DNA from: Minisyncoccia bacterium | GTDB lineage: Bacteria; Patescibacteriota; Minisyncoccia; Phycocordibacterales; GWA1-40-21 | Reading direction: 5' to 3' | Length of the DNA: 64,000 nucleotides | NCBI GenBank assembly: GCA_049287185.1 | Contig: JBAQFI010000012.1 | Coordinates: 166,179 to 230,178 of the forward strand | Shown here: one piece after another, positions 22,880-63,867 of the stretch | Layout of the letters: every line of letters begins with the position of its first letter | Position numbering within the stretch: position 1 is the stretch's first letter | Made by a program: the position numbers and the translations under genes | Notes under the pieces: model-generated | What the model was told of the DNA's origin: nothing | The model's database searches: none | Seen by the model: only the letters and a program-made list of their open reading frames with translations

Positions 22880-22959
22880 TTTCATGAGCTAACGCAAGAA
22901 GTAGTTATTTGTATTATTGATGTATACACATAACATAATTATTACGTTATAATAAATAT

Positions 22960-23384: not shown

Positions 23385-23476
23385 CAACATATGAGAATGA
23401 TTATTATATTTCATTTAGAAGTAATAAAATAACTTTACTAATCAACTTTAAAATTCATATCTCCTAGCTCAAAAAT

Positions 23477-24022: not shown

Positions 24023-24062
24023 AATTTAAAAACTCCGATTGTTCGGAGTTTTAATACTTGCG

Positions 24063-24377
24063 TTATTCTTCGCAACTACCATTAACGTCATCCCAGAGCT
24101 TTTTCGTACTTATGATTGATTCAAACATATCACCTAGTCTAACCTCGTCAACTTTATTTAGTGGTGTATTCATGTCAGTTAATTTTTCCATTCTTTCACT
24201 AAATTTTCTGTTCAAAACAAGAAAATAATCCCAGAGGTATTTCTTATTACAAGCATCATGAGCTTCCTCAGTATCAAAAATCATCCATGGTAGTGATAAG
24301 ACTCCAGCACTGGCATATTCCCCACTAATTCTATTTGAGATAGAAACAAATCCTCGTGTTTTTATTTTGTATGACAT
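24063..24377 (-). CDS. hypothetical protein
   Basis: ORF only. Confidence 0.35.
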   Translation of the reverse strand: MSYKIKTRGFVSISNRISGEYASAGVLSLPWMIFDTEEAHDACNKKYLWDYFLVLNRKFSERMEKLTDMNTPLNKVDEVRLGDMFESIISTKKLWDDVNGSCEE

Positions 24378-24410
24378 TTTGTCAAAAGTTAAATTAATAA
24401 TAAATAAAAA

Positions 24411-25160
24411 TTAATATTCCGCTGAAACACTAGTAAAACCATCTTTAGTTACCACAACATGGTCCAGTAAATCTATACCGAGCATTTTCCCGGCTTTCAC
24501 CAACTGGTTAGTTATTTCTATGTCTGCCTGGCTTGGTTTTGAATCACCAGATGGGTGGTTATGAACTAATATCATGGCTACTGCGGAATATTCTAGAGCG
24601 GGTTTAAAAACTTCACGTGGATGAATAAGGTTAGAATCAGCGGTTCCGATAGAGATAGTCTCATCATGGATAACTTTATGATGAGCGTTCAAATAAAGGC
24701 CTCTAAGATTCTCTTTTGGTAATTCACGCATATCTTTAGCGTACTCAAAAACATCCTGGGCATTACGTACCGTGGCTAAACCATTGCCGTTCTTTTCAAA
24801 AAATCGGCGACCGAGTTCACAGCAGGCTACGACTTGGAGAGCTTTACTGATTGGAATATCCAATTCCTTTGCTAGGAGGATTGGATCATTGTGATTGGCC
24901 AGTCCCTTTGCACCATATTCTTTTAGAATTCTGTGACACATTTCCATGACTCCCTCTTTTTTAGAGCCAATACCTAAAATTATAGCTAGCAATTCAGGCG
25001 AGGATAGACTCGTAGAGCCAGATTTCAACATTTTTTCTCGCGGCCGTTCATCATCTGGCAAATCATGAATTTTTAAAACATAAGTTTTGGGTTCTTGGTC
25101 CAAAACTAAGCTGTTATCAATAATCCGATAATTACTCCTAACAAGATCTAGTGTTTTCAT
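24411..25160 (-). CDS. radC: RadC-like JAB/MPN domain protein (HNHPSG motif, N-terminal HhH)
   Basis: JAMM motif and RadC architecture. Confidence 0.85.
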   Translation of the reverse strand: MKTLDLVRSNYRIIDNSLVLDQEPKTYVLKIHDLPDDERPREKMLKSGSTSLSSPELLAIILGIGSKKEGVMEMCHRILKEYGAKGLANHNDPILLAKELDIPISKALQVVACCELGRRFFEKNGNGLATVRNAQDVFEYAKDMRELPKENLRGLYLNAHHKVIHDETISIGTADSNLIHPREVFKPALEYSAVAMILVHNHPSGDSKPSQADIEITNQLVKAGKMLGIDLLDHVVVTKDGFTSVSAEY

Positions 25161-33616: not shown

Positions 33617-35308
33617 TTAACGATCTGGTGGTATTTGATAATAATTTATTAAAAAGTCCGCTAAATTCATGAATGGCTTAGTAAAAGTCTCAGAAGCATA
33701 ATTTACACCTTTTGGATCTACAGCATACAAAAGAATAAGAAATTGGGGGTCATAGGCCGGAAAATAACCAAAAAATGAGTGCAAATACCTGTCTTTATAA
33801 TAACCGCCACCGTCAGGATTAGCAAGCTGAGCTGTACCGGTTTTAGCAGCAATACTATATCTATCATGACGGTATGTTCCTCCACGGAGAGCCTTATCTA
33901 CTACTGTCACTAGCATTCTAGTTATTTCTTCAGAAGTCTCTTTTTTAATTACCTGTTGACCTGGGGTAACCTCAATTTTCTTTGTCACTCCGATGTCATA
34001 ATTTATTTGTTTAACTAAATGTGGTGTCACGAGGTATCCTCCATTACCAAGAACTGCTAATGCTCGAATAGTTTGAATAGGTGTTAGGGTTATTCCTTGG
34101 CCAAATGATGAGGTTATATATTCAACGTCTCTAGTGGAATTTAGATTTCTAATATCACCTGAAATTTCGTCTGGCAGATCAATACCTGTTTTTTCTCCAA
34201 AACCAAACTTAATTAAATAATCGGCAAAAACTTTGTTTCCAAGTTTATCTACTACAAAAGCCATACCGGTATTTAGTGATTGATTTAAAACTTCCTGCAT
34301 TGGTACAACACCTCTAGCTTTTTTATCGTAGTTATATATTGTGGCGATGCCGGATTTTATAAAACCTTTGTCATTGTAGGTGGTTTTAGCCGTTACGACT
34401 CCAGCATCTAATCCACTAGCCATGGTAATAGCTTTAACAATCGAACCCATTTCAAATCGACTTTTTATAATCGGATTTGGAAAGGTACTCATTTTTTCTT
34501 TACCATAATCATTGGGATTAAAGGTTGGCCAGGCCCCTAAGGCATATATTTCTCCTGTCTTGGGACTCATAATTATTCCACCCATGCTTTGTGGAGAATA
34601 TTCGGCGTACACTTTATCAAATTCATTTTCTAATGTTTTTTCAACTTCTGGCTCAATTGTAGTGACAATGTCACCTTCTAGACTCTCTTCAGGGTTGAAG
34701 GCTTTATTCAGCGTCGAAAATATCTCAGCAAAAAAATTATTATAAGTGTCCTTACTATTACGAGTCAAAACATTGTCATATGATGTTTCCAAACCATAAC
34801 CACGACTTTTACCATCGACACCAACCATACCTAGCGTCTGGGAAGCCAAAGTATTATTAGGATAATAACGCCAACGTTCCTTAATCACGACCACCCCTTT
34901 AATATTTTTTTCTGAAATTTCCATTGCTTTAAACTCCTCTATTTGAGTTGCTATTTCTTCATAGGGATCATCTTTTTTACTAGCTCGTGAAAAAAATTTT
35001 TCTGAATCAATGTCAATAGTTTTGGATAAATTATCGTAGGTTTCTTTTACATCTGATATTTTGTTTGGAGTGATTGCAATAATATAACCAGTTTTCAAAT
35101 TTGCAGCCGACAATAATGTATTATCTTTATTTGAGAAAAAAATAGTACCGCGATCAAATAAACCATTTTGACTAGTATACTGTCTTTCGGCTTTTTCAAT
35201 AAATTTATCATTATTTACAATCTGCAAAAAATATAGTCGCACTATAAATGACAGTGCGACTACAATAATAATTATTGAAATTAATCTGATACGTGAGTGT
35301 AAAATCAT
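33617..35308 (-). CDS. ftsI: penicillin-binding transpeptidase FtsI/PBP3-like (SxxK SIVK, SxN, KTG)
   Basis: transpeptidase motifs, dcw context. Confidence 0.85.
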   Translation of the reverse strand: MILHSRIRLISIIIIVVALSFIVRLYFLQIVNNDKFIEKAERQYTSQNGLFDRGTIFFSNKDNTLLSAANLKTGYIIAITPNKISDVKETYDNLSKTIDIDSEKFFSRASKKDDPYEEIATQIEEFKAMEISEKNIKGVVVIKERWRYYPNNTLASQTLGMVGVDGKSRGYGLETSYDNVLTRNSKDTYNNFFAEIFSTLNKAFNPEESLEGDIVTTIEPEVEKTLENEFDKVYAEYSPQSMGGIIMSPKTGEIYALGAWPTFNPNDYGKEKMSTFPNPIIKSRFEMGSIVKAITMASGLDAGVVTAKTTYNDKGFIKSGIATIYNYDKKARGVVPMQEVLNQSLNTGMAFVVDKLGNKVFADYLIKFGFGEKTGIDLPDEISGDIRNLNSTRDVEYITSSFGQGITLTPIQTIRALAVLGNGGYLVTPHLVKQINYDIGVTKKIEVTPGQQVIKKETSEEITRMLVTVVDKALRGGTYRHDRYSIAAKTGTAQLANPDGGGYYKDRYLHSFFGYFPAYDPQFLILLYAVDPKGVNYASETFTKPFMNLADFLINYYQIPPDR

Positions 35309-40344: not shown

Positions 40345-42051
40345 CTATTTCAGATATTCCGGTCGATACAAAATAATCCATTTAATTATTTCACTCATAA
40401 CTGAAGAGGCACCAATAGTGTTACTTCGTGGACCTTTTTCCATCATCATAACAAAGGCATAATGTGGTTTTTCATAGGGAAAATATCCCATTACCCAAGA
40501 GTTAACTTTAATTTTACCTTCATCAATTTCAGCTGTACCAGTTTTAGCGGCAATAGCTACCTCTGGAAAATTTAAAGCTTGAGCAACACCACTAACTGCT
40601 CCTTGTCTCATACCCTCTTTTACCACCTGAAAAGCACTTGGTAAAATATTCCAATTTTGATTCCATTTTGTCTCTTCATCAATTAAAATTTTTGGGTTAA
40701 CGATTTTACCATTGTTAGCAATACCAGCTACTGTTCGCAACATTATGATTGGTGTAACTTGAAAACCATATTGACCAATAGAAGTGTTGTAGGTATCACC
40801 TAGACGCCAGACTCCATCTTTAAAGTTCAAGGCTTTCCAGTCTGGACTTGGTACAATTCCGGCCGCACCGCTAAAAAAACTATCGGCAACGGGCTGATTG
40901 ATACCAAACATCTTCATGTACTCATTTATCCGACCGATACCTAAACCAACCTGTTCGTCAGGCTCATAACCACCACCTAGACGATAAAAATACTCATTCG
41001 ATGATACCGCAATTGCCTCTCGCATATCAACATAACCGTGAGCTTTCCAGTCCTTAAAAATACTTGGTTTGGTTTTATCATAGGGATTTGGCACTACCAA
41101 TTGTCCGGAACTATAAAAGTTTTGCAAAGGATCAATAATTTTTTCATTGAGTCCTGACAAAGCCATTAATGGTTTAACAATAGATCCTGGAGTATACAAA
41201 CCATCAGTCAAACGGTTCAAGAATGGTTTGTTTTTACTTGTTAAATAACTATTGATTAGTTTTGTATTGTCACCATCAGTTAAAACTTGTGACGAATATT
41301 CAGGATAATTAACAGCAGCCAGGACCTCACCATTAGTAATATCCATCATCATCATTGCTCCACCACCAAAACCAACTCGATTAGCCAAATCATCCATCGT
41401 TTCATAGGCCTGAGTTTGTAGTTCAGAATCAATAGTCATTACTAGATTTTTGCCATTCTGAGGTGCCCTAATTGTACTTGAGGATTGAATAGCTCCAACA
41501 GCATCAACTTCAACAATTCTTAGACCATTCTGACCAGATAATTCATCATTGTAATACTTTTCTAATCCCGCTTTACCATCCAAAACTTCATTATAGTAAA
41601 AACCCATTTTATCCTTCTGTGGGTATTTTAGGTAGCCTATTAATGAAGAAACTCCTGGTTTAGAATTGTATCGTCTTAAAGTAAACTCTTCCTCCTGACT
41701 AATAATATTTTCGGCTAATACTTTTTGATTTCTATCAAGAATTAATCCTCGGTCAGCAAAAACCAACGTCTCTCGAAGTCGGTTATTTTCACTTCTTAAA
41801 GCATAGGCACTACCTTTGGTTATTTGTAATTCCCAGATGCGAAATCCAAAAATTAATATAACAATAACAAAAAAAATACCAATGCTAAATAAACTCAAAA
41901 AAGAAATAGGCTTTTCAATTTGCCCTTCAAACTGGTCGAGATTATGTTTTGGCAAGTTACTCGAGTCTAGAAAAATCTCATCCGGATCAATATCCCGATT
42001 ATACTTTTTTACTGAATGCCTACGCCATTTTATGAACCATCTTCGCCACAT
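40345..42051 (-). CDS. mrdA: penicillin-binding protein 2 (elongasome transpeptidase; SIVKP, SSN, KTGTA)
   Basis: motifs plus adjacency to mreBCD. Confidence 0.85.
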   Translation of the reverse strand: MWRRWFIKWRRHSVKKYNRDIDPDEIFLDSSNLPKHNLDQFEGQIEKPISFLSLFSIGIFFVIVILIFGFRIWELQITKGSAYALRSENNRLRETLVFADRGLILDRNQKVLAENIISQEEEFTLRRYNSKPGVSSLIGYLKYPQKDKMGFYYNEVLDGKAGLEKYYNDELSGQNGLRIVEVDAVGAIQSSSTIRAPQNGKNLVMTIDSELQTQAYETMDDLANRVGFGGGAMMMMDITNGEVLAAVNYPEYSSQVLTDGDNTKLINSYLTSKNKPFLNRLTDGLYTPGSIVKPLMALSGLNEKIIDPLQNFYSSGQLVVPNPYDKTKPSIFKDWKAHGYVDMREAIAVSSNEYFYRLGGGYEPDEQVGLGIGRINEYMKMFGINQPVADSFFSGAAGIVPSPDWKALNFKDGVWRLGDTYNTSIGQYGFQVTPIIMLRTVAGIANNGKIVNPKILIDEETKWNQNWNILPSAFQVVKEGMRQGAVSGVAQALNFPEVAIAAKTGTAEIDEGKIKVNSWVMGYFPYEKPHYAFVMMMEKGPRSNTIGASSVMSEIIKWIILYRPEYLK

Positions 42052-42319: not shown

Positions 42320-43123
42320 TTATTTTTTAATAATTTCCACAAACTTCAGCTCTAGGAGATTGACAGGGTTTTTAAAATATACATTTTGAAAAGTATCAGA
42401 AGCCTCTGACACAATTTTTTCCACCACACCAAAAACATTTAAGGAAATTGACGGTACGACCACACTATCCCCCTCTTTTAATTCTGTTTCTTTTGGTAAA
42501 CGAACAATAAAATTTCCGGAGCCAATGCCTTTAGCCTCAGCTTGAATAGAATTTGGGCCTAATAAAACATTCGTTACGGCGTTTGGCGTAGAAAATAATG
42601 ATACTTTTGAGGTTTTACTAAAAACTTCCGTCACTTCTCCCAAAACAATAGTGCCGTCAACGGAAACCAGATCCCCAACCTTAATATCAAAATTGTTTCC
42701 AGCGTCAACAATGATTTCATCATAAAAACTAATGCCTGGTTTTGACAAAACATAGGCCAATACAGACTGTTGTTTTTCATCCTTACGTCCCAAAGCTTCT
42801 TGAAGAGAAAGATTTTCTTGACGAAGAAAATCATTTACCAAAACATAATAATCAGTTTTATTTTTTGCTTCACGTAGAGCCCTATTTTCTTCAACTAATG
42901 AGCGTTTCGAAGAAAAAAGATTGGCACTATCGATTAACAAAACTTCTATAACATTTTCAAGTTTCCATAGTGGTCTACCAACCATGAAGACCAGATTACG
43001 GAAGGATGAAGAGATAAAAATAAGAATTAGAAAAATAATTACCACAGAAAAAAATATGGTTCTTTTTTTTCTCCCTCTTTTGGGCGAACTAAATGTATAA
43101 TTATTTTTTTGGTGGTAGTTCAT
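42320..43123 (-). CDS. mreC: rod shape-determining protein MreC
   Basis: TM, coiled coil, beta-rich C-domain; operon position. Confidence 0.7.
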   Translation of the reverse strand: MNYHQKNNYTFSSPKRGRKKRTIFFSVVIIFLILIFISSSFRNLVFMVGRPLWKLENVIEVLLIDSANLFSSKRSLVEENRALREAKNKTDYYVLVNDFLRQENLSLQEALGRKDEKQQSVLAYVLSKPGISFYDEIIVDAGNNFDIKVGDLVSVDGTIVLGEVTEVFSKTSKVSLFSTPNAVTNVLLGPNSIQAEAKGIGSGNFIVRLPKETELKEGDSVVVPSISLNVFGVVEKIVSEASDTFQNVYFKNPVNLLELKFVEIIKK

Positions 43124-44174
43124 CTTCGTTTTGGATCAAAACTTCATCAAAATCCGAAAGATTCTCCAGAATTATACCAGTGCCACGGGCAATGGCGGTC
43201 AACGGATCATCAGAAATAAAAACCGGAATTTTAAAGGTCTCCTTAAGTAAGGTATCTAAACCTCTAATCAATGCTCCTCCTCCAACCAAGTGAATACCTC
43301 TCTGCATAATATCAGACACAATTTCTGGCGGAGTTGTTTCCAAAACTTCTTTTACTGCTTCGACCAAGGAATCGATAGATTGCGCCATAGCCTCACGAAT
43401 ATCGGCATCTGTAATAATCACTTCTCGTGGCAGACCAGTAATTAAGTCACGTCCTTTAATAGAAGTTTCCATGGCCTCCATAGGCACAACTGACCCAATT
43501 TTAATTTTAATTTCTTCAGCCGTTTTTTCACCAATAAGAATTTTAAATTCACTACGAATGTATGCAATAACATCGTTATTAAGTTTAACGCCAGCAATAC
43601 GAAGATTTTTTGAACGAACAATTCCGCTTAAGGAAATCACAGCGATGTCTGTGGTACCACCACCGATATCTATCACCATACTGGCCACGGCTTCTTTAAC
43701 GGGTAATTTAATACCAATAGCTCCAGCCATTGGCTCCTCAACAATGTAAACCTCACGAGCGCCAGCATTTCTAGTCGCATCACGAACAGCGCGAATCTCG
43801 ACGTTTGTTACTCCAGAAGGCACACCAACGACTACTCGTGGTCCAAGTAACTTTTTAGAACCTTTTTCCGCAGTACGTAGTAAATGAGCAATCATTTCTT
43901 CGGTCACTTCGAAATCAGAAATAACACCATCAACAAGAGGACAAATAGCAGTAATATGTGGAGGTGTACGACCAAGCATTTCTTTAGCTTGGCAACCAAC
44001 AGCGACTACTCGCCCGGTCTTTTGGTTCACTGCTACAACTGATGGCTCGTTAACTACAATTCCCCTTCCCGCCATGTAAACCAAAGAATTGGCAGTACCA
44101 AGATCAATCCCAATATCATTTGAGAATCTTCTGTTTATTTTCTTTCTGATTTGATTTCTGATTTTCTTGATCAT
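43101..44174 (-). CDS. mreB: rod shape-determining protein MreB (actin-like ATPase)
   Basis: GIDLGTANSL phosphate-1, DIGGGTTD phosphate-2. Confidence 0.95.
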   Translation of the reverse strand: MIKKIRNQIRKKINRRFSNDIGIDLGTANSLVYMAGRGIVVNEPSVVAVNQKTGRVVAVGCQAKEMLGRTPPHITAICPLVDGVISDFEVTEEMIAHLLRTAEKGSKKLLGPRVVVGVPSGVTNVEIRAVRDATRNAGAREVYIVEEPMAGAIGIKLPVKEAVASMVIDIGGGTTDIAVISLSGIVRSKNLRIAGVKLNNDVIAYIRSEFKILIGEKTAEEIKIKIGSVVPMEAMETSIKGRDLITGLPREVIITDADIREAMAQSIDSLVEAVKEVLETTPPEIVSDIMQRGIHLVGGGALIRGLDTLLKETFKIPVFISDDPLTAIARGTGIILENLSDFDEVLIQNEDELPPKK

Positions 44175-49978: not shown

Positions 49979-50992
49979 TTACTTTTTACTTATAATACTT
50001 CTCTTATAGACATCTAAGTGTTCCAGTGCAATACCGGTCCCCTTAGCTACACAATACAAGGCCTCTTCGGCCAGAATAGCCTTAACACCTGTACGACGAA
50101 ATACCAGTTCCGGTAAATTACGCAATTGGGATGAACCACCGGTCATAATAATTCCACGATCAATAATATCAGAAGCCAATTCTGGAGGAGTTTCCTGTAA
50201 AACATCTTTGATAGCTTTAATCATGTCCTTAAGCTCACGGCTAATAGCTTTGACAATTTCATTGGTTTTAATTTCGGCAGAACGAGGCAAACCAGAAATA
50301 AAATCTCGGCCTTTGATAGTCATTTGTAATTCTTCTTCGAGTGGTACAGCCGAACCAATTTTAATTTTAATTTCCTCTGAAGTTTGGTCACCAATTGCTA
50401 GATTAAAAGTTTTCTTAATATAATCAGCGATAGCATAGTCAATCTTGTTCCCAGCACATTTAACAGAAGTGGAGGAGACAATACCACCGAGAGAAATCAC
50501 TGCTACGTCAGTTGTTCCACCACCGATGTCCACCACCATATGTCCGGCTGGTTCATAAATTGGAATACCGGCACCAATTGCAGCGAGAATCGGTTCCTTC
50601 ACGACGTAAGCATTTTTAGCTCCGGCCTTAATAGCGGCCTCAATGACTGCCCGACGTTCAGTAGAAGAAACTCCCGCTGGTACAGAAATCATGACATCTG
50701 GTTTAAACAAACTCCACTTACCTAGAGCTTTATTTATAAAATAGCGAAGCATCGCTTCGGTCACGCGATAGTCGGCGATTACACCATCTTTCATCGGACG
50801 ATAAGCAATAATATTGTCAGGGGTTCTACCAATCATTAATTTGGCTTCATTACCAACAGCCAAAATTTTATTATCTTGTTCGGAAACTGCCACTACAGAA
50901 GGTTCAAACAAAACTACACCCTTGCCAGGTAAAAAAACTAGGGTATTAGCTGTTCCTAAGTCAATTCCAATTCGTTTAGTAAAAATGGACAT
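49979..50992 (-). CDS. second MreB/Mbl-like actin homolog
   Basis: GIDLGTANTL and DIGGGTTD motifs. Confidence 0.9.
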   Translation of the reverse strand: MSIFTKRIGIDLGTANTLVFLPGKGVVLFEPSVVAVSEQDNKILAVGNEAKLMIGRTPDNIIAYRPMKDGVIADYRVTEAMLRYFINKALGKWSLFKPDVMISVPAGVSSTERRAVIEAAIKAGAKNAYVVKEPILAAIGAGIPIYEPAGHMVVDIGGGTTDVAVISLGGIVSSTSVKCAGNKIDYAIADYIKKTFNLAIGDQTSEEIKIKIGSAVPLEEELQMTIKGRDFISGLPRSAEIKTNEIVKAISRELKDMIKAIKDVLQETPPELASDIIDRGIIMTGGSSQLRNLPELVFRRTGVKAILAEEALYCVAKGTGIALEHLDVYKRSIISKK

Positions 50993-51473: not shown

Positions 51474-51773
51474 ATGAGTATCAGAATCTCTGAAGTAAAG
51501 CCGTCCGAAAAACTTGTAACAGAAGAAATTGGGAGAAGTAAGGATAACAAGGCTGTCGTTTTGAAAATAAACGGCGAAATAATTGTCCTCAAAAGTTCCC
51601 GGTTCAAGTTCAGTGCTCCTGAAGAAGGACCGCCGAATATTCTCTCAAAGAAAGAAATCCAGGAATACAAGAAAAAAAGCGATGCGAGTAAAAGTCCTGC
51701 TTGCCTTGCCCAAGAAAGAAAAGACGACAGAAAAAGATGCAAACTCTGGAAAGAGGGCGAAAAATATCAGTGA
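51474..51773 (+). CDS. hypothetical 99-aa protein with strong AAGGAGG RBS
   Basis: RBS and terminator at 51791-51820. Confidence 0.5.
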   Translation: MSIRISEVKPSEKLVTEEIGRSKDNKAVVLKINGEIIVLKSSRFKFSAPEEGPPNILSKKEIQEYKKKSDASKSPACLAQERKDDRKRCKLWKEGEKYQ

Positions 51774-51790
51774 TAATCATTATCACAAAC

Positions 51791-51820
51791 AAGACGCACT
51801 GAAAAGTGCGTCTTTTATTA
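51791..51820 (+). terminator. terminator aagacgcact-gaaa-agtgcgtctt + T-run
   Basis: seen directly. Confidence 0.7.
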
Positions 51821-51917
51821 TATGAGTATAAAAAAAGACGTACCCGGAGGTAACGTCTTATGAAGCATCAGTCCAAAGATAATTCGGACTGAAAAAGAAA
51901 GAACTAATCTAAAGAGT

Positions 51918-52078
51918 GGAGCTCCTTACTTATTAGGTCGACACACAGTTCAACGCCGGAATGTAATTGGTTGCAGTACAGTCTCACCCGGCTTGGTGGG
52001 ATTTCTTGTTCTCGGGACATTTTCCCCGCAAGAAATTTATCTTGACTTGCCAATACATTATTCCTAGTAAGGAGCTCC
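51918..52078. ncRNA. candidate structured RNA/TIR-bounded unit 1 (closing helix GGAGCUCCUUACU / AGUAAGGAGCUCC, 161 nt)
   Basis: 13 bp perfect terminal complementarity; no credible ORF; flanked by hairpin terminators. Confidence 0.3.
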
Positions 52079-52167
52079 GGGGCTATCATATCATCTAATA
52101 AAAAATTCGCAAATTAAAAACATACCACGTGGTATGTTTAAAAAAAGAAAGAACTAATCTGAAGAAT

Positions 52168-52373
52168 GGAGCTCTTTGTTAAAATGATCGCCGAGCCACA
52201 GGCTAATCATAAATGCATTTGGAGTTTGTATCGCCTATCCCTCTATTGGTGGGATTCTGTGGCATTGTCCCTATTGGGTAGCCATTCGCACACGAGAAAG
52301 GAATAATTCCATCCCGCGAAATAAATACGCGATTATCGGCTAGCCAAATACATTTTTCCTAACAAAGAGCTCC
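52168..52373. ncRNA. candidate structured RNA/TIR-bounded unit 2 (closing helix GGAGCUCUUUGUU / AACAAAGAGCUCC, 206 nt); 5' flank about 30 nt identical to unit 1
   Basis: compensatory change in terminal helix relative to unit 1. Confidence 0.3.
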
Positions 52374-52415
52374 AAAAAGAATACTACACCCGTAAATAAT
52401 TTTGTCAAAAATTAA

Positions 52416-52657
52416 GTAGAACTCTTCGTCGGGCACACAAACCAGATGGTTGTGATTGTGAAATCAAAATTGTGCTGGTGACATCGAGCAAATCCTCTCA
52501 TTGCCCCTAAGGAGATGCTGGATTAACAAAAGATTAACTTTCGAACCACTTCCTCCCGCGCGTCAATTGCCTTGGTGGGCCATTATCTCACCAACTAGCT
52601 GATACGACTAATGCCCGACACAACCCAAAATTTTCACTTAACCCAACGAAGAGCTAC
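52416..52657. ncRNA. candidate structured RNA/TIR-bounded unit 3 (closing helix GUAGAACUCUUCGU / ACGAAGAGCUAC, 242 nt)
   Basis: third variant of terminal helix; followed by strong terminator. Confidence 0.25.
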
Positions 52658-52687
52658 AAAGAATATTATCATCACAGGTTATTTTGT

Positions 52688-52731
52688 AAAGACATCGAGA
52701 CAGAGTGTCTCGATGTCTTTATTTTTCTTTG
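52688..52731 (+). terminator. strong terminator aaagacatcgagaca-gag-tgtctcgatgtcttt + T-run
   Basis: 15 bp stem. Confidence 0.75.
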
Positions 52732-52740
52732 TTTAATACT

Positions 52741-52770
52741 AAATACTGTATACTAGATACTATATACTTT
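52741..52770. repeat. heptad direct repeats (ATACTNN)x4
   Basis: same motif as 16835 and 19841. Confidence 0.5.
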
Positions 52771-52792
52771 TCTGGCTTCTTCATAGCATATG

Positions 52793-52801
52793 TGCTATAA
52801 T
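52793..52801 (+). promoter_or_regulatory. extended -10 TGCTATAAT upstream of HTH-murA
   Basis: TGn-TATAAT. Confidence 0.4.
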
Positions 52802-52822
52802 AAAAAATATATAAATTTAATC

Positions 52823-52903
52823 AACCCACAAAAATTGACAATTCAGATTGTCATCCCCGTGAAGACGGGGATCCAGTCTTAATCAAAACTTTACCGGGTA
52901 AAA
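52823..52903. repeat. family C module termini (caacccacaaaaattgac ... tcaaaactttaccgggtaaa) with an IR-A-variant arm (52845-52878) in the middle; ends 2 nt before the murA start
   Basis: aligned against 12970-13034 and 47776-47835. Confidence 0.5.
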
Positions 52904-52905
52904 AT

Positions 52906-54411
52906 ATGGATAATTTAAATCAAATCGGAAAACTAATTTCTACCTTAAGGCAACAAAAAGGCCTAACTCAGGAACAATTTGCTCAAAAATTAAATACCAC
53001 TCAAAGCGCTATTGCTCGCATTGAAAATGGTGAACAAAATCTAACTACTGAAATGATTTCCAAAATCAGCGAAACTCTAGAAAATAGTTTAGTTTGTGTC
53101 GCTGATGGAGCTATAAATATTGAAATTCACGGTGGTAAAAAACTGGCCGGAGAAATAATTACTAGAACATCCAAAAACGGAGCGGTGGGTCTCCTCTGTG
53201 CTTCCCTACTCAACAAAGGCAAAACTACTTTAAAAAATGTACCAAAGATTGAAGAGGTATATCGTATTATTGAAGTTCTAATTAGTATTGGTGTCAGCAT
53301 CAAATGGGTAAATAATGATTTGGAAATAAAAGTCCCAGCCAAATTATCTTTGAGTAAAATCAATCGGGACTCGGCTATTAAAACTCGCAGTATCATAATG
53401 TTTTTTGGCCCACTAATTCACGAATTTAAAAAATTTCGTTTACCTCGTAGTGGTGGCTGTAAACTTGGTGCTCGATCTATTCAGCCTCACATCTACGCAC
53501 TAGAGGAACTCGGGGTAAAAATTGAAACTAAAGAAAAATATTATGAAATCACTCATAGCGGTTTAAACAAAAATAGAGAAATAATTCTTTATGAGGCTGG
53601 TGACACCGTGACGGAAAACGCTATTATGGCCGCCGCTCGCTTACCCGGCACAACTACTATCAAATACGCCTCCGCCAATTATATGGGTCAGGACCTGTGC
53701 TTCTTTTTGGAAAAGCTAGGTGTAAAAATTCAGGGTATTGGCACCACTACTATCATTGTGGAGGGTAAGGAAAAAATTAACGAAGACATCATTTATTATC
53801 TTGGGGAAGATCCGATTGATAGTATGTTTTTTATTTCTGTCGCAGCCACCACCAATTCTAAAATGAAAATCACTCGTTGTCCGATTAACTTCCTAGAAAT
53901 GGAGTTACTCAAACTAGAAAAAATGGGTTTAAAATTTAAGAAATCAAAAACTTATAAATCTTTAAATGAAAGACTGGACTTAGTTGATATTCAAATTTTT
54001 CCGTCAAAACTCGTTGCCTTGGAAGATAAAATTGAAGCCCATCCTTATCCAGCCATTAATATTGATAACCTACCTTTCTTTGCCGTGATTGCCACCCAAG
54101 CTCAAGGCCAAACTTTTATCCACGACTGGGTTTATGAAAAACGCGCCATCTATTACACTGAGCTAAATAAGCTCGGTGCAGATACCCTTCTAGCTGACCC
54201 TCACAGATTTTATGTGAATGGTAAGACCACTCTAAAACCTGCGGAAATAATCTGCCCGCCAGCTCTCCGTCCAGCGGCCATAATTTTAATTGGTATGCTC
54301 GCCGCCAAAGGACGCTCAGTTTTGCGAAATATCTATAGTATAAATCGCGGTTATGAAGATATTACTAAAAGATTGAATGACATTGGCGCCGATATTCGTA
54401 TTTTAAGATAG
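52906..54411 (+). CDS. murA: UDP-N-acetylglucosamine 1-carboxyvinyltransferase with an N-terminal XRE-family HTH domain (fusion)
   Basis: HTH LRQQKGLTQEQFA...SAIARIENG; MurA GGKKLAGEI, catalytic Cys loop RSGGCKLGARS, C-terminal RGYEDI. Confidence 0.85.
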   Translation: MDNLNQIGKLISTLRQQKGLTQEQFAQKLNTTQSAIARIENGEQNLTTEMISKISETLENSLVCVADGAINIEIHGGKKLAGEIITRTSKNGAVGLLCASLLNKGKTTLKNVPKIEEVYRIIEVLISIGVSIKWVNNDLEIKVPAKLSLSKINRDSAIKTRSIIMFFGPLIHEFKKFRLPRSGGCKLGARSIQPHIYALEELGVKIETKEKYYEITHSGLNKNREIILYEAGDTVTENAIMAAARLPGTTTIKYASANYMGQDLCFFLEKLGVKIQGIGTTTIIVEGKEKINEDIIYYLGEDPIDSMFFISVAATTNSKMKITRCPINFLEMELLKLEKMGLKFKKSKTYKSLNERLDLVDIQIFPSKLVALEDKIEAHPYPAINIDNLPFFAVIATQAQGQTFIHDWVYEKRAIYYTELNKLGADTLLADPHRFYVNGKTTLKPAEIICPPALRPAAIILIGMLAAKGRSVLRNIYSINRGYEDITKRLNDIGADIRILR

Positions 54412-54417
54412 TTTTTT

Positions 54418-54606
54418 CTGTCATTCCCGCGCAGGTTGAAATTTGGGATGGGACCCAAATGAAAGACCTTGAGCGTTTTGTCTTCAAAATGTGAAAGGTG
54501 TACTGCTCCTGTAAGGAGAGAAATTCCAGTCCTTCTATGTTAAAACAATTTACGATTCCTAGATTCCCGCCTGCGCGGGAATGACAACACGAATAACAGG
54601 TTGAAA
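54418..54606. repeat. IR-A family element with left arm interrupted after gcgcag by about 115 bp and duplicated caggttgaaattt / tttttctgtcatt flanks (nested or rearranged copy)
   Basis: right arm intact at 54552-54580. Confidence 0.45.
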
Positions 54607-54640
54607 TTTAGTCATTTTTCTGTCATTATAATAAGAGCGT

Positions 54641-54818
54641 GTTTACAATCTAACCGCCATTAAACATAACAATCGGCTTGCTCGTTCAAATCTTCAAATT
54701 TAGGCTACAAAATAAGTGTTTTCTCCTCAGCGTATCTCGATATGCTTCGAAGAAAACCCATATTTTTCGCTCAAAATTTGAAAATTTGTTCCGAACATTA
54801 GATTGTAAGCACGCTCTA
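54641..54818. repeat. 19 bp inverted repeat pair (agagcgtgtttacaatcta / tagattgtaagcacgctct) bracketing about 140 bp, ending 2 nt before the priA start
   Basis: seen directly. Confidence 0.4.
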
Positions 54819-54820
54819 CA

Positions 54821-56737
54821 ATGAAACTCATCGGCATTATCCCCATTTCAAGAGGCATTGCCAAGGAAAAACTGTCGTATTTTTCGACCGAGGACTTTCC
54901 TATTGGTTCTATTGTCTATGTCTCTCTGCGCAGTAAAAACATTCCTGGTTTAGTTGTTTCCAGCCAGGATGCTCTAGAAGAAAAATCCAGTATCAAGAAA
55001 CTATCATTTACTATTAAAAAAGTCAGTAAGAAACCACCAGTAGAATTGTTTCTACCAAATTTTATTAAAACCTGTCAGGAAGAGGCTCGCTATCTAGCCA
55101 CCACGACTGGTGCTGTACTTTATTCGGTTATGCCGAGTGGTATTTTAGAAAATTTAGATAAAATTGAAAAAACAGAATTAACTGTAAAAAGAAAAAATGA
55201 AGTCGGTGAAAAATTTGTAGTGCAAAGCGATGACGAGGAAAGATATTCTAATTACAAAAGTATCATTCGTGAAGAATTTGCCAAAGGCTATTCAGTTTTC
55301 TTTTGTCTCCCAACAATTCAAGAAACCAAAAAAGCTGTTAGTTTACTTTCCAAAGGTATAGAAACTTACACTTTTGTCTTACATAGTGGCCTGACAAAAA
55401 AGGAAATTCTGAAGACCTGGAACAAAATCATGGCGGAAAAGCACTCCGTCCTAGTAGTTATGACTGGCTCATTCCTTTCTCTACCTCGTCCTGATATTGG
55501 AACCATTATTATTGACCGTGAAAGTTCCCGCTCCTACAAAAGCCAACATCGACCATTTCTAGACATTCGTTGTTTCGCTGAGAAACTAGCCTTAAACTAT
55601 AACGTTCGTCTGGTTCTCGGTGATATTTTATTACGAACTGAGACCATCTGGCGCTATAAGAATAATGAGTTTTTTGAATTATTTCCGCTCAAGTTTCGCT
55701 CTCTTTCCCTCTCTAGTCAAGAAATTATTGATATGTGTCCAAAGCCAGTTGAACAGGACTTTGTTGAAGAAAAAGATAAGAAAAAAATTGAGTTCAAAAT
55801 AATTTCTGATGACTTAGTAAATTTAATAAAAAATAATCAAGACGACAGTGAACATCTGTTTATTTTCTCAGCACGTCGTGGTCTTCATCCAACTACTCTT
55901 TGTGCTGATTGTGGCACGATTGTCACCTGTCATAATTGTAAATCACCAATAGTTCTTCACACAGCTAGTAAAGGTAATTTTTTCCTTTGTCATCGTTGCG
56001 GTGAACGGAGAAGCGCCTCAGAGAAATGTTTTAAATGTGATAGCTGGCGTTTAGCGACACTAGGCATTGGTTCAGAACTTATAGAAAAAGAAATTCAAAA
56101 AATTTTTCCCGATATGAAAATTTTCAGATTAGATGCCGACAATGCTGACTCCCACAAGAAAGCCCTGCAGATTGCCGAGAAATTTTATTCTTCTCCGGGT
56201 TCAATTTTAATTGGTACAGAAATGTCCCTACCATACATTTACGAAAAGATTCAAAACTCAGCCGTTATATCTATGGATGCTTTCTTTTCCCTACCAGACT
56301 TTCGCATTAATGAAAGAATAATTAACATCATATTAAAGATAAAATCCTTTACCAGCAAGAGATTTATTCTTCAGACTAGAAAAGCACAGGCTAAAATCTG
56401 GGATTATGCTGTCCGTGGTAACCTGGCAGATTTTTATCGTGATGAAATTGGCGATCGCCAGATGTTAAGCTACCCCCCATATTCAACTTTGATCAAAATT
56501 AGTTTATTAGGAAATAAAGATGTCGTAGTTGGAGAAATGGAAAAACTACAAAAAGAAATTGAGCCACATATTATTGATATTTTTCCGGCCTTTATTCCAA
56601 GCAAAGCTGGAAAATATCAGATTCATGGACTCATAAAAGTTAAAGGTGATGACTGGGTGGATGAAGCCTTGCTAGAAAAAATTCAGAATTTACCACCAAT
56701 ATTTAACGTAAATGTTAACCCAGAAAGTCTGCTCTAG
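54821..56737 (+). CDS. priA: primosomal protein N' (PriA) homolog with degenerate Walker A and Walker B (DRES) but intact 3'BD and Cys-rich region
   Basis: aligns to PriA around VLHSGL and IIIDRESSRSYKSQ; CxxC x4 region; helicase C-domain. Confidence 0.75.
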   Translation: MKLIGIIPISRGIAKEKLSYFSTEDFPIGSIVYVSLRSKNIPGLVVSSQDALEEKSSIKKLSFTIKKVSKKPPVELFLPNFIKTCQEEARYLATTTGAVLYSVMPSGILENLDKIEKTELTVKRKNEVGEKFVVQSDDEERYSNYKSIIREEFAKGYSVFFCLPTIQETKKAVSLLSKGIETYTFVLHSGLTKKEILKTWNKIMAEKHSVLVVMTGSFLSLPRPDIGTIIIDRESSRSYKSQHRPFLDIRCFAEKLALNYNVRLVLGDILLRTETIWRYKNNEFFELFPLKFRSLSLSSQEIIDMCPKPVEQDFVEEKDKKKIEFKIISDDLVNLIKNNQDDSEHLFIFSARRGLHPTTLCADCGTIVTCHNCKSPIVLHTASKGNFFLCHRCGERRSASEKCFKCDSWRLATLGIGSELIEKEIQKIFPDMKIFRLDADNADSHKKALQIAEKFYSSPGSILIGTEMSLPYIYEKIQNSAVISMDAFFSLPDFRINERIINIILKIKSFTSKRFILQTRKAQAKIWDYAVRGNLADFYRDEIGDRQMLSYPPYSTLIKISLLGNKDVVVGEMEKLQKEIEPHIIDIFPAFIPSKAGKYQIHGLIKVKGDDWVDEALLEKIQNLPPIFNVNVNPESLL

Positions 56738-56966: not shown

Positions 56967-57551
56967 ATGACCGACAAAATCATAAATAAGAAGAAAATAG
57001 CGGAAATCCCGATTGTTCAAAGGCACGATCCAGTTTTGCGTGGTAAAGCAAAACCAGTTGATCTAAAGGAAATTACCTCATCCAAAATTAACAAAATCCT
57101 TTCTGATATGAAGAAGGCTCTCGCTCAGGAACAAGACGGTGTGGCTATCGCTGCTCCACAAATTGGCGTTGATCTGAGTATTTTTGTCGTCTCTAAAAAG
57201 GTTTTTCAACTTATGGATGGAAAAAATATTGAAGAAAAATCTAGTTATCAGGATTTGGTTTTTATAAATCCGAAAATATTAAAATTATCTAAAACAAAAA
57301 AACTAATGGAAGAAGGTTGTTTGTCCGTTAGATATGCCTATGGCAAAGTTCCACGAGCGGAACGAGCTACTATTGAAGCCTATGATGACGAGGGTCAGAA
57401 ATTTACTCGAGGAGCGGGCGGACTCTTGGCTCAAATCTTTCAACATGAAACAGACCATTTAAATGGCGTTTTGTTCATCGACAAAGCTACTGAAGTTGAA
57501 GAAATGTCAGAAGCAGAATACCTTAAGCTTTATCAAGATGATAATAAATAA
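56967..57551 (+). CDS. def: peptide deformylase
   Basis: GxGxAAxQ, EGCLS, QHExDHLxG motifs. Confidence 0.95.
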   Translation: MTDKIINKKKIAEIPIVQRHDPVLRGKAKPVDLKEITSSKINKILSDMKKALAQEQDGVAIAAPQIGVDLSIFVVSKKVFQLMDGKNIEEKSSYQDLVFINPKILKLSKTKKLMEEGCLSVRYAYGKVPRAERATIEAYDDEGQKFTRGAGGLLAQIFQHETDHLNGVLFIDKATEVEEMSEAEYLKLYQDDNK

Positions 57552-58401
57552 TCAAAACATAAAAACTGCCTTTATGGGTAGTTCTGAATTTTCCGTTATT
57601 GTTTTAGACAATCTTAAAAAGGCTGGACTAATTCCCGATTTGATTGTGTCAGCTCCTGACAAACCACGTGGTCGCAAAATGGTCATCACTCCAAATGAAG
57701 TGAAAACCTGGGCCATTAAAAATAATATCCCAGTTGTGACTCCTGACAAATTAAAAAATCCTGATTTTCTGGAAGTAATTAAAAATCACGATTTACACAT
57801 TGTTGCTTCCTACGGCAAAATAATTCCGGCTGGAGTTTTATCCAGTGCCAAATATGGCAGTGTAAATATTCATCCTTCCCTACTACCAAAATATCGTGGC
57901 CCATCACCACTCCAAACAGCTATTTTAAATAATGACAAAAATACTGGCATTTCCATTATGCTTTTAGATGCCGAAGTGGATCACGGACCAATTTTAGCTC
58001 AAGAAAATATTTCTCCTGAAAACTGGCCTGTTTCTTTTAATGAACTGGAAAAAATTACGGCTGAGGCTGGAACAAAATTGCTTATCAAAGTTTTACCTGA
58101 CTGGATAAATAATTCGATAAAAGCCCGCGAGCAAGATCACAGCCAAGCAACTTTTACCAAAAAAGTTGAGAAAACTCACGGTCTGATTAGTCTTACCGAT
58201 AAACCTATGACTAATTTACTGAAAACTAAGGCTTATAGCGAATGGCCCAATACTTATTTTATTGTTAAACACAAAGATCGAGATATCCGAGTCATTGTCA
58301 AAGATGCTAAACTTGAGGCTGGTCAGTTTGTCCCAACGAGAGTTATTCCAGAAGGAAAAAAAGAAATGGACTATAAATCATTTCTTCAGGGACTTAAATA
58401 G
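57538..58401 (+). CDS. fmt: methionyl-tRNA formyltransferase (start at MIINN, 14 nt overlap with def)
   Basis: formyltransferase N-domain SLLPKYRG motif and C-domain. Confidence 0.9.
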   Translation: MIINNQNIKTAFMGSSEFSVIVLDNLKKAGLIPDLIVSAPDKPRGRKMVITPNEVKTWAIKNNIPVVTPDKLKNPDFLEVIKNHDLHIVASYGKIIPAGVLSSAKYGSVNIHPSLLPKYRGPSPLQTAILNNDKNTGISIMLLDAEVDHGPILAQENISPENWPVSFNELEKITAEAGTKLLIKVLPDWINNSIKAREQDHSQATFTKKVEKTHGLISLTDKPMTNLLKTKAYSEWPNTYFIVKHKDRDIRVIVKDAKLEAGQFVPTRVIPEGKKEMDYKSFLQGLK

Positions 58402-59764: not shown

Positions 59765-59836
59765 TCCGTGGTAGCTCAGTGGTAGAGCGATCGCCTGTTA
59801 AGCGATTGGTCGTAGGTTCGATCCCTACCCACGGAG
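59765..59836 (+). tRNA. tRNA-Asn (anticodon GUU)
   Basis: manual cloverleaf: acceptor TCCGTGG/CCACGGA, anticodon loop CTGTTAA, T-loop TTCGATC. Confidence 0.9.
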
Positions 59837-61378
59837 CAATGTAGGATGAGAGAGCACGAAAGTGCTCTTTTGTCTTTTATTAGCAACGTTTTTCTCTGGT
59901 TCGAAAGTATCATTAAGTACTGGTACCCAATTAGTCAAAAACTGGAAGGCTAAAGTGTAATCTGCACTTATTTCATCTGTGTTTAATGACATGTTCGAAA
60001 ATATTTTGCTGAGAAGTAATCTCTTGTCTTCTATACTGCATCTTGGACTCTTATATATCTCTTCTGCTTTTGACGCTAGTTCATGAATTGCAAAACCAAT
60101 TTCATAATACTTTGTATTTCCTTCATTTAATTTCTTGAGTAATTCAATACCATCTTCCTTATCCTTTGTGTATTCTGCAAATTTTTTATTATAGAATTCC
60201 GGTGTAATCTTTGAATCAATCTTATCTTCATAAATAGCTTCGAGACGCTTTTGTGCTAATTCAACTTGTTGATTGGCTTCCTTTTGCATTGTGACCTGAT
60301 ATTTTATTTCCCCATCATGATTACTTTTAAGTGCTTCTTCAAGAATTTTTAAAACATTTCTTGATTTTGGAGCGACTTTATCAAACAGAGGAAATATCAT
60401 TTCTTCAACTTTCTCCTGACGAAACCACTTCTTTTGACTGCATTTTCGGTAATGATTACAATGTCCATACCAATGTTCTCTTTGAATTTCCCAAGTAACT
60501 GTTCCTTTGCATTCACCACATTCTATCTTTGCTTTAAATACAGGTAGATGTTTTCGATATTGAGGAACCTTAAATTTACGCATCAATTTTTCTTTAACTT
60601 GATCGAAAAGACTTTTGGCTATTATAGGTTCATGCTTGGCTGGATAGAGATTTCCATTCCAACTCATCATGCCGTAATAGAAAGGGTCTGAAAGAAGATC
60701 ATACATTCTTGATTTCCCCACTTTTTTTCCTTCTCTATTTCTTAAACCTTTCTTATACATAAGGTCTGAAAGAGCAGGAGTTGAATAGTTACCAGTTGAA
60801 TATAACCGAAACATTTCAATTATTATTGGTTTTCTCTCCTCATCTATAACATGTATCTTATGCCCTTTATCTCCAATGGTTTTATAACCTAATGGTGGCT
60901 TGGTTGGTAACCAACCCTGAGCTATCTTCTCTTTTTGCCCCTTTTTTACTTCTTCAGATAGATTAGCTATATACTTCTTTGCAAGGACAATTTCGATGTC
61001 CCATCTAAACTTCTCGTCTGATTTTGAGTATTTATGTATTACAAGATTTTGTTTTACAAAATGAATTTGTCTTTCGCAATTTTCTTCAACCCAGTTATTT
61101 ACGTCTAAAGCTTCTTTCAAATTCCTAGTTAGTCTATCAACTTTCTCGCATAATAATACTGATATACCATTTCTTAACATATAGCTCATCATTTCTCCGA
61201 ATATCTTTCTTTGTTTAGCACCACTTGCTGATTCTGCCACTGAAAAGGTCTTATCAACTTCAAATCCCCTCCTTTCTGCGTAATCAATCAAAAGTTTTTC
61301 CTGGGCTGGTAATGAATAACCTGTTTCTTCTTGTTCTTTAGATGATACCCTACAATATGCTACTGATTTAATTTTCAT
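59825..61378 (-). CDS. large serine recombinase/integrase (resolvase catalytic domain YCRVSSKEQ, recombinase domain, Zn ribbon), 3' end abuts tRNA-Asn
   Basis: catalytic Ser motif and domain order. Confidence 0.85.
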   Translation of the reverse strand: MKIKSVAYCRVSSKEQEETGYSLPAQEKLLIDYAERRGFEVDKTFSVAESASGAKQRKIFGEMMSYMLRNGISVLLCEKVDRLTRNLKEALDVNNWVEENCERQIHFVKQNLVIHKYSKSDEKFRWDIEIVLAKKYIANLSEEVKKGQKEKIAQGWLPTKPPLGYKTIGDKGHKIHVIDEERKPIIIEMFRLYSTGNYSTPALSDLMYKKGLRNREGKKVGKSRMYDLLSDPFYYGMMSWNGNLYPAKHEPIIAKSLFDQVKEKLMRKFKVPQYRKHLPVFKAKIECGECKGTVTWEIQREHWYGHCNHYRKCSQKKWFRQEKVEEMIFPLFDKVAPKSRNVLKILEEALKSNHDGEIKYQVTMQKEANQQVELAQKRLEAIYEDKIDSKITPEFYNKKFAEYTKDKEDGIELLKKLNEGNTKYYEIGFAIHELASKAEEIYKSPRCSIEDKRLLLSKIFSNMSLNTDEISADYTLAFQFLTNWVPVLNDTFEPEKNVANKRQKSTFVLSHPTLLRG

Positions 61379-62799: not shown

Positions 62800-63867
62800 A
62801 TGAAAAATATCGGTAGTCTAATTTTGTTTTTAGTATTTTTATTCTTACCTATTACTTTTACATATGCCTACGGTGGATCATTAGGTACTTTTGGTAACCC
62901 ATTGCAGGTTGAGGTAGTACAAACACCATCACAAATACTAGACCAACAAAGAAGAGATATGGAATTGAGGTCTCAACAACAAAGCCAACAAAATTCTCTA
63001 AATTCTGCATTACACCTGCAACAAGAACTGAAATTTTTGGAATTAAAACAACAAGTAAATGATCGCTTTAAGCCATTCCCTGGTCACCTACCTACACCTA
63101 ACTGTCAAAATGGCTATGTTTTAATGAATGGAAGCTGTATTACTTATAATCAATCATGTAATCTTCAATATCCCAATACTGTTTTTGTAAATTATAATGG
63201 CAATGGTGAAAGAGTCTGTAATTGTGCGAGTGGTTATCTCTGGAATAAACAAAAAACAGGCTGTATTCTAGATTACAATTTAATCTGTTCCGATAAATTT
63301 GGAGCAGGATTTACCTGGGATGGCACAATTAATAGTGCTGGTGGCCCAAATTGTTCATCAGCGGTAGAAAATAATAAGATCTGCGCTAAAGATTATGGAG
63401 AAAGAAGTATTTGGAATGGCAAAACAAATGAAAAAGGTGGATTAATTTGTGATTGTATGACTGGCTATCAATGGAATTCTAATCAAACATCTTGTATTAC
63501 TATTTCCAAACCTAAAACAATTTCTACCACCACAGTGATAAATGGTGGTAGGAGTTTAGGGATCTGCACAAACAATGCGACTAACTATCCGACTTGTGAT
63601 AGTAATGTAAAAATATCCTGTGATAAAATAGTTTTTGGAAAAATGACAAGTTTTGGTGTTATAACTAAGGATGAATGTAGTTTGGCCTGGAAGAAAGCAG
63701 TTGAAGCAAAGCAACAGGAAACAAAAATAGAAGAAAATATTCAAAAAGCAACAACTACTGATGCGCAGATTATAAGTAATTCAAGTAGTACTGTTTTAGT
63801 AACTAGTAGTTTAGTTCAAAAAAACGGTGGCATTTGGAAAGTCATTACAGGCTGGTTTGGTTTTTAA
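62800..63867 (+). CDS. secreted Cys-rich repeat protein (4 copies of C.C..GY.WN....C, Gln-rich linker, C-terminal hydrophobic tail)
   Basis: signal peptide and repeat pattern. Confidence 0.5.
   Translation: MKNIGSLILFLVFLFLPITFTYAYGGSLGTFGNPLQVEVVQTPSQILDQQRRDMELRSQQQSQQNSLNSALHLQQELKFLELKQQVNDRFKPFPGHLPTPNCQNGYVLMNGSCITYNQSCNLQYPNTVFVNYNGNGERVCNCASGYLWNKQKTGCILDYNLICSDKFGAGFTWDGTINSAGGPNCSSAVENNKICAKDYGERSIWNGKTNEKGGLICDCMTGYQWNSNQTSCITISKPKTISTTTVINGGRSLGICTNNATNYPTCDSNVKISCDKIVFGKMTSFGVITKDECSLAWKKAVEAKQQETKIEENIQKATTTDAQIISNSSSTVLVTSSLVQKNGGIWKVITGWFGF

Follow-up and report, generated by a model that had tools for sequence, protein, structure and literature searches.

A probable natural pseudohelicase form of the replication restart protein PriA, without ATP-site motifs or winged helix, in a Minisyncoccia bacterium and its relatives

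We analyzed a 64,000-nucleotide stretch of a Minisyncoccia bacterium genome (GenBank assembly GCA_049287185.1, contig JBAQFI010000012.1, positions 166,179 to 230,178; hereafter the window, G+C content ~36%) and found that its priA gene (54821..56737, plus strand, as are all parts of it described below) encodes a divergent homologue of the replication restart protein PriA in which all the ATP-site motifs are replaced and the winged-helix (WH) domain is missing. Minisyncoccia (Parcubacteria/Paceibacteria) belongs, as a class, to the phylum Minisyncoccota, also known as the Patescibacteria or candidate phyla radiation (CPR). The protein is probably a natural pseudohelicase, predicted to sense replication forks and recruit the replicative helicase DnaB without ATP. 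An initial annotation, made from the DNA letters alone, had already proposed a helicase-dead PriA, and this proposal fits all of the evidence below, with the loss of activity and the retention of fork binding both deduced from sequence.

The gene is an intact open reading frame (ORF) of 638 amino acids (aa) plus a stop codon, at the position initially given, and every sequence string quoted in the initial annotation is present (VVQSDDEERYS at aa 133–143, VLHSGL at aa 186–191, DRES at aa 232–235, and the cysteine-rich strings CADCG, CHNC, CHRCG, and CFKC at aa 361–406). Its assignment to PriA is borne out by profile, sequence, and structure searches. The protein matches TIGR00595 (“replication restart helicase PriA”) with E = 1.8e-72 and 244.6 bits, just over the curated cutoff of 230.35, and reaches at most 240 bits with PRK05580 models and at most 64 bits with the actinobacterial PRK14873 models. 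Because it passes the TIGR00595 cutoff, annotation pipelines will call it a helicase, which is an annotation hazard; database names for the family include “primosomal protein N',” “superfamily II helicase,” and “hypothetical protein.” Pfam matches to the 3'-DNA-binding domain (3'BD, PF17764; 21.1 bits versus a threshold of 22.7), PriA_C, and the zinc ribbon of the cysteine-rich region (CRR) are marginal, and most relatives bear a precomputed PF17764 match. A phmmer search of the PDB returned only PriA, with Klebsiella pneumoniae PriA (E = 3.6e-37) aligned from residue 144, directly past the Walker A position, to aa 560. Similarly, nearly all tblastn alignments to chromosomes from multiple phyla (mislabelled as plasmids) begin at residue 145, with 22–27% identity. 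The sequence is also found, with 100% identity, in NCBI under the name “MAG: primosomal protein N' [Minisyncoccia bacterium].”

Modeling with AlphaFold2 from 61 family sequences gave a confident structure (mean predicted local distance difference test score (pLDDT) 89.5, predicted template modeling score 0.89). The nine best Foldseek matches in the PDB are all PriA, with template modeling (TM) scores of 0.61–0.78, and the rest (Mfd and others) have TM scores of at most 0.40. The top match is Escherichia coli PriA in the fork-bound CRR-UP state (8fak_H, E = 1.7e-42, TM 0.78), followed by lower scores for the PriA crystal structures, which are the apo/ADP-bound form (4nl4, 0.69), the double-stranded DNA-bound form (6dgd, 0.67–0.70), the SSB-peptide-bound form (4nl8, 0.61–0.67), and a construct lacking the WH (ΔWH; 6dcr, 0.66–0.70). 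The domain order of PriA is kept, comprising the 3'BD, two RecA-like lobes, the zinc-binding CRR inserted in lobe 2, and the C-terminal domain (CTD), and so are the PriA signature residues LHS, ET, QT, and PP.

We aligned the protein with E. coli PriA using MAFFT, and also aligned 14 diverse relatives with a panel of ten canonical PriAs (E. coli from RefSeq, two Clostridia, two Bacilli, and one each from Bacteroidota, Cyanobacteria, Fusobacteriota, Alphaproteobacteria, and Betaproteobacteria). Motifs I, Ia, II, III, and VI are invariant across this panel, and all five are replaced in the Minisyncoccia protein. The degenerate Walker A and Walker B motifs that had been noted initially are placed correctly: in the alignments with both E. 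coli and the panel, the column of the Walker A lysine K230 holds R141, and D320-E321-E322-H323 aligns to D232-R233-E234-S235. Degeneration of motifs Ia, III, and VI goes beyond what had been described. Former motif I (Walker A; 55220..55249, aa 134–143, VQSDDEERYS) reads Q-SDDEERYS against the canonical G[VI]T[GS]SGKTE, with a family consensus of Q-x4-R; motif Ia reads PTIQET against PEIxLT (family PTxxx); and former motif II (Walker B; 55514..55525, aa 232–235) reads DRES against DE[EC]H (family [DE][RKH]E[SNHQG]). Former motif III (55616..55636, aa 266–272, LGDILLR) has GDILL in place of [GAV]SATP (family GDxxLR), and former motif VI (56330..56362, aa 504–514, ILKIKSFTSKR) has K-SFTSK in place of Q[VC]xGRAGR (family R-xxxx) with a five-residue deletion. 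R141 is invariant in the family, and the column of the catalytic glutamate (E. coli E321) is R, K, or H in all 14 diverse members. Motif V is GTEM versus the canonical GTQM, and motif IV (RRG) is kept.

An intact P-loop elsewhere in the N-terminal region, which would have spoken for a different alignment, is not there: the whole protein contains no [AG]xxxxGK[ST] and no GK[ST], and it also lacks GxxGxG, DExH/D, and SAT. The fold of lobe 1 (55211..55720, aa ~131–300) is kept, with a degenerate ATP-binding face, and lobe 2 continues after the CRR in a second part (56057..56470, aa 413–550), through which the alignment to PriA structures in the PDB extends to aa 560. Strand 131–135 of the model runs nearly straight into helix 138–154 (pLDDT ~95), and there is thus no phosphate-binding loop. 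The acidic DDEE segment, together with the arginine or lysine at the old catalytic glutamate, suggests from sequence that an internal salt-bridge network may fill the former nucleotide cleft. In E. coli, PriA with K230R, the same lysine-to-arginine state as R141, has lost ATPase and helicase activity and supports restart (PMC5778457, PMC4504706).

The absence of the WH domain is a further point beyond the initial description. E. coli residues ~109–220, which comprise the WH (~109–181) and the segment before motif I, have no counterpart in the alignment. The distance from the end of the 3'BD to the motif I column is 36 aa in the Minisyncoccia protein and 34–41 aa in the family, compared with 122–211 aa in the ten canonical PriAs, so that ~90–170 residues, covering the WH and the stretch upstream of motif I, are missing. 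They are replaced by a short linker (55136..55210, aa 106–130) that is modeled as coil only (pLDDT 72–84). The E. coli WH docks into the parental duplex 10–20 bp from the junction (PMC10175261).

We located functionally characterized E. coli residues in the alignment of the protein, its relatives, and canonical PriAs, and found that features for binding DNA, zinc, and partner proteins are largely retained. The 3'BD (54821..55135, aa 1–105; PF17764 at aa 25–105, E = 2.7e-4) is beta-rich in the model. Of the residues with roles in its 3'-end pocket in E. coli (D17, Y18, G37, and K61; PMC5778457), Y18 corresponds to the invariant Y20 and K61 to K66 (K or R in the family); the D17 and G37 columns are variable even in canonical PriAs. 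Behind motif II, the equivalent of the aromatic-rich loop (55526..55570, aa 236–250, SRSYKSQHRPFLDIR) aligns to the canonical YKQ..PRYHAR, keeps its length, and follows the pattern YK...RP[FY]xDxR, in which Y239, K240, P245, D248, and R250 vary little or not at all. The corresponding loop of E. coli PriA inserts as a wedge into the fork junction (PMC5175346, PMC10175261). The motif IV residues R352-R353-G354 (55874..55882) correspond to E. coli R427/R428, with R352 and G354 invariant; R427 and R428 bind lagging-strand single-stranded DNA (ssDNA) in the PriA pore, and reversing their charge is worse than an ATPase-dead allele (PMC13594977).

The CRR (55892..56056, aa 358–412) carries all eight zinc-ligand cysteines (C361, C364, C370, C373, C390, C393, C403, and C406), which align to the zinc cysteines of E. 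coli and are all invariant or nearly so. The residues H455, E492, and D513 that define the CRR-UP interface in E. coli (PMC13594977) are kept as H380, E419, and D440. The CRR also bears W409, a family-invariant residue in the column of E. coli T482, which is a PriB-docking residue (PMC10175261). R520, in the column of E. coli H599, is family-invariant as well, and R37 and R150 are likewise invariants specific to the family. The CTD (56471..56734, aa 551–638) has a weak PF18074 match at aa 553–622 and belongs to the full-length structural match to PriA.

The degenerate state is common to all relatives examined, which answers the question of sharing raised by the initial annotation: it is found in all 366 collected proteins and in 80 loci from GTDB species genomes. 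The 120 closest database relatives (53–89% identity, ~636 aa) all have sequences like QSDDEERY and DKEN. We ran HMMER over the full set of 1.84 billion cluster representatives and took the top 150 clusters, down to 37% identity (~630 aa), none of which has a P-loop at the motif I position. Further relatives came from a word-indexed search seeded with a basal member, and the total of 366 proteins are all full-length and intact ORFs (437–702 aa, median 636). Five of the 366 match a P-loop regular expression by chance, at unrelated positions (aa 68, 162, 356, 516, and 586), and their true motif sites are equally degenerate. A scan of GTDB species genomes with patterns derived from a closer alignment found 369 loci, and the canonical motifs are absent in all 80 that were kept; an earlier form of genome-contig scan with patterns from the single protein gave 272 stretches, none of which encodes a relative. 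Informative organism labels, from record titles and source names, are Parcubacteria, Paceibacterota, Minisyncoccia, Taylorbacteria, Vogelbacteria, Zambryskibacteria, and Campbellbacteria. Many third-party annotation records are labelled “uncultured Candidatus Saccharibacteria,” a label that we held to be unreliable and did not use. Two loci with a Parcubacteria-type priA (L030 and L079) are titled “Victivallales bacterium” and “Nitrospira sp.,” probably through bin contamination or mislabelling.

The residues that replaced the canonical motifs are themselves conserved, with Q135, R141, Y145, R150, E234, D268, and L271 invariant or nearly so. Identity within lobe 1 is 0.42 in the family, about the same as the 0.47 among canonical PriAs. 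Compared with an 89%-identical homologue, the proportion of nonsynonymous differences (pN) is 0.073 for the whole gene and 0.063 for lobe 1, with a saturated synonymous value (pS) of 0.747 for the whole gene, and priA is under strong purifying selection. A neighbor-joining tree places the family in one clade apart from the canonical panel. We looked for a gradient toward canonical PriA among 274 members and found none; all score 177–295 bits with the canonical profile.

The gene is also the positional ortholog of priA, at an ancestral priA-def-fmt site. The gene order in the window is murA (fused to a helix-turn-helix (HTH) domain), priA, def, and fmt, where def encodes peptide deformylase (56967..57551, plus strand; PF01327, E = 7.9e-44) and fmt encodes methionyl-tRNA formyltransferase (57463..58401, plus strand; PF00551, E = 1.3e-29). 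In 47 of 73 related loci with enough flanking sequence, def adjoins priA downstream; Bacillus velezensis also has the order priA-def-fmt, and Monoglobus has priA-def. A search of the six-frame translation of the 64-kb window with a canonical PriA hidden Markov model found a single PriA-like ORF, the one at 54821..56737. The presumed client of PriA, the replicative helicase DnaB, is encoded in the window (17081..18418, plus strand; DnaB_C 331 bits, DnaB N-terminal domain 123 bits), and its Walker A motif is intact (ARPSMGKTS).

We favor the pseudohelicase reading because the features needed for ATP-independent roles of PriA are kept, those needed for translocation are gone, and both E. coli mutants and Deinococcus radiodurans provide precedents. 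E. coli PriA with K230R or K230A still loads DnaB in vitro and, in vivo, supports restart via PriA-PriB (PMC5778457, PMC10175261, PMC13594977). D. radiodurans PriA, although devoid of ATPase and helicase activity, was shown to bind ssDNA, forks, and DnaB (PMC4504706). By analogy, the Minisyncoccia protein would use the 3'-end pocket of its 3'BD, together with the wedge formed by the retained aromatic-rich loop, to bind abandoned forks or D-loops. The lagging-strand ssDNA would then be enclosed between the CRR, lobe 2, and the CTD by means of the motif IV arginines and the CRR-UP interface, and PriA, acting as an ATP-independent platform, would recruit DnaB directly or through a partner. ATPase-dead E. 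coli PriA operates in this way in the PriA-PriB pathway, and the same has been proposed for D. radiodurans PriA. The model is nearer to the fork-bound CRR-UP state than to the crystal states, which is compatible with a protein biased toward the scaffold form. More tentatively, and with rather less than even confidence, we propose that the whole class has a minimal ATP-independent fork sensor without motor or WH, which may be biased toward CRR-UP and may use W409 to recruit a partner other than PriB (DnaB, DciA, or SSB).

Several points weigh against the pseudohelicase reading. We infer the enzymatic deadness of the family members from their sequences. No candidate partner that would link PriA to DnaB was found next to priA, and PriB and DnaT are reportedly poorly conserved outside PriB-bearing lineages (PMC10175261, PMC5778457). 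The small preference in TM score for the CRR-UP state could reflect a bias of AlphaFold2 or the unequal extents of the modeled chains. We also considered the CRR-DOWN residues (E. coli H437, H599, H600, Q397, and K395) as proof that a helicase-mode shape is impossible and rejected them, as they are variable among canonical PriAs; a locked conformation can therefore not be deduced from sequence. Finally, the search for a second PriA covered 64 kb of the genome, and a canonical copy may exist elsewhere.

A different account of the same features is that the PriA fold has been neofunctionalized outside restart, perhaps as a structure-specific DNA binder that serves repair, recombination, or the maintenance of the chromosome, while another route reloads DnaB. 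Low identity to canonical PriA (22–27%), the separate clade, the family-specific invariants without canonical counterpart (W409, R520, R37, and R150), and the loss of a domain that contacts the parental duplex in E. coli (PMC10175261) favor this account. However, the residues for fork recognition and the ssDNA pore are kept and the gene has remained in its ancestral position beside def and fmt, and neither restart competence (ATPase-dead E. coli PriA; PMC5778457) nor binding to forks and DnaB (D. radiodurans pseudohelicase PriA; PMC4504706) depends on an active motor, so that we regard neofunctionalization as unlikely. The protein could instead be an active ATPase or helicase that uses a non-canonical or relocated nucleotide site. 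A second, weaker nucleotide site, never seen structurally, has been proposed for E. coli PriA (PMC5778457), and lobe 1 is strongly conserved in the family. Such a site would have to operate in a protein that has no GK[ST] or glycine-rich loop anywhere, has lost motifs I, II, III, and VI together, and has the P-loop collapsed into a helix in a confident part of the model, and in E. coli the single lysine-to-arginine change is enough to abolish activity (PMC4504706); we consider it highly improbable.

That the gene is decaying in a reduced genome, or is an artefact of assembly or frameshift, is refuted in practice. Patescibacteria genomes are reduced, gene loss in them is frequent, and family members appear as “hypothetical protein” in some NCBI records, all of which would agree with decay, but 366 relatives have a full-length, intact ORF, the motif state is identical in 80 species-level genomes, and the identical protein occurs in an independent NCBI record. 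A pN/pS ratio of ~0.1 or lower and a confident AlphaFold2 model likewise contradict decay.

The predicted pseudohelicase PriA of Minisyncoccia can be set beside several known forms. With canonical PriA of E. coli and K. pneumoniae (4NL4, 6DGD, and 8FAK) it shares the order of 3'BD, helicase domain 1, helicase domain 2 with the CRR, and CTD, as well as the eight zinc cysteines, the pocket tyrosine and lysine, the motif IV RRG, and the CRR-UP histidine, glutamate, and aspartate. It differs in lacking motifs I, Ia, II, III, and VI, the WH, and the pre-motif-I segment, in being ~100–190 residues shorter, and in its 22–27% identity. D. radiodurans PriA, which we compared by its published description, resembles it in having poor Walker A and Walker B motifs and an arginine in place of the Walker A lysine (PMC4504706), but belongs to another phylum, and its reported degeneration concerns motifs I and II (PMC4504706), whereas the losses in the Minisyncoccia family extend to motifs Ia, III, and VI and to the WH. 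E. coli priA300 (K230R) and the K230A and K230D mutants share a changed Walker A lysine, K230R in the same way as R141, and are restart-competent (PMC5778457, PMC10175261, PMC13594977); they are, however, single-residue laboratory changes in proteins whose other motifs and WH are intact, and they depend on PriB and DnaT, which reportedly show poor conservation across bacteria (PMC10175261). The ΔWH E. coli PriA (6DCR) has the 3'BD joined to the core without a WH and is the second-best structural match (TM 0.70), but it was engineered in the laboratory, and its ATPase core remains active.

Our protein falls outside the actinobacterial PriA subgroup (PRK14873), with at most 64 bits compared with ~240 for TIGR00595 and PRK05580. 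UniProt and HAMAP flag actinobacterial PriA as having no detectable helicase domains, and it would be a further natural example of PriA that is not a helicase. Mycobacterial reviews describe PriA as a “helicase loader” and leave the motifs undiscussed. A 2017 review considers PriA helicase activity conserved “except in Deinococcus” (PMC5778457). Our literature search found no paper joining PriA with Patescibacteria, with one co-occurrence of the terms that concerns another phylum, and a PriA pseudohelicase in Patescibacteria appears not to have been reported before. A natural PriA pseudohelicase as such is already published, for Deinococcus-Thermus; what is new here is another lineage, a fuller loss of motifs, and the deletion of the WH.

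The family would represent a second, much larger lineage in which the ATP site is more dismantled and the WH is gone, yet purifying selection is strong. This selection on a dismantled PriA supports fork recognition and partner recruitment, rather than unwinding, as its indispensable function. If the class-wide minimal fork sensor is real, it would be the simplest natural primosome initiator, and helicase activity would be dispensable for the core function of PriA across a major bacterial radiation. The protein offers a naturally reduced scaffold for dissecting, by structure and biochemistry, ATP-independent reloading of the helicase in organisms that have no PriB, DnaT, or DnaC. It also hints that episymbiotic CPR bacteria with tiny genomes handle restart substrates with duplex lagging strands in another way, or tolerate them.

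Upstream of priA, the MurA-like enolpyruvyl transferase gene (52906..54411, plus strand; EPSP_synthase, E = 3.2e-45) encodes an XRE-type HTH_3 domain (E = 6.5e-15) at the N-terminus of its product. Of 80 related loci, 55 have this fused gene in the vicinity of priA, and the HTH-murA fusion is therefore conserved in the lineage. The 409-bp gap between the two genes (54412..54820) and an ORF-poor stretch of ~1.1 kb upstream of murA (51743..52905) contain no notable ORF and no Rfam match, and promoter-like sites in them are at background level. Downstream, the listed ORFs of def and fmt share 89 nucleotides; fmt probably starts in reality at a later ATG, close to the stop codon of def, because the Formyl_trans_N match begins at aa 36.

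A genome-maintenance cluster (6690..25160) encodes a UvrC-like protein (6690..7943), UvrA (8591..11215), the DnaB mentioned above, RecR (18596..19222), RmuC (19879..20955), and RadC (24411..25160). Excision repair and RecFOR-type components are kept in this reduced genome beside the PriA with its predicted dead motor. The window also encodes two MreB paralogs, two PBP2-type transpeptidases, MraW, and a Mur ligase (33617..35308, 40345..42051, 43101..44174, and 49979..50992), which for a CPR genome is a fairly complete set of cell-wall elongation genes.

At the 3' end of the window, the 3' end of a gene for tRNA-Asn(GTT) (59765..59837, plus strand) overlaps the gene of a large serine recombinase (59825..61378, minus strand, 517 aa) with Resolvase and Recombinase domains and a match to the PHROG 95 integrase (E = 1.3e-68). 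From 60 kb onward, the G+C content falls to 0.32. A mobile element or prophage has probably integrated here at tRNA-Asn, extending past position 64000; no attachment-site repeat for it was found within the window. The low-GC putative element contains a LOOT RNA (RF03000; 62618..62735, plus strand; 73.2 bits compared with a gathering score of 46.4), which lies just upstream of an unannotated 355-aa ORF (62800..63867).

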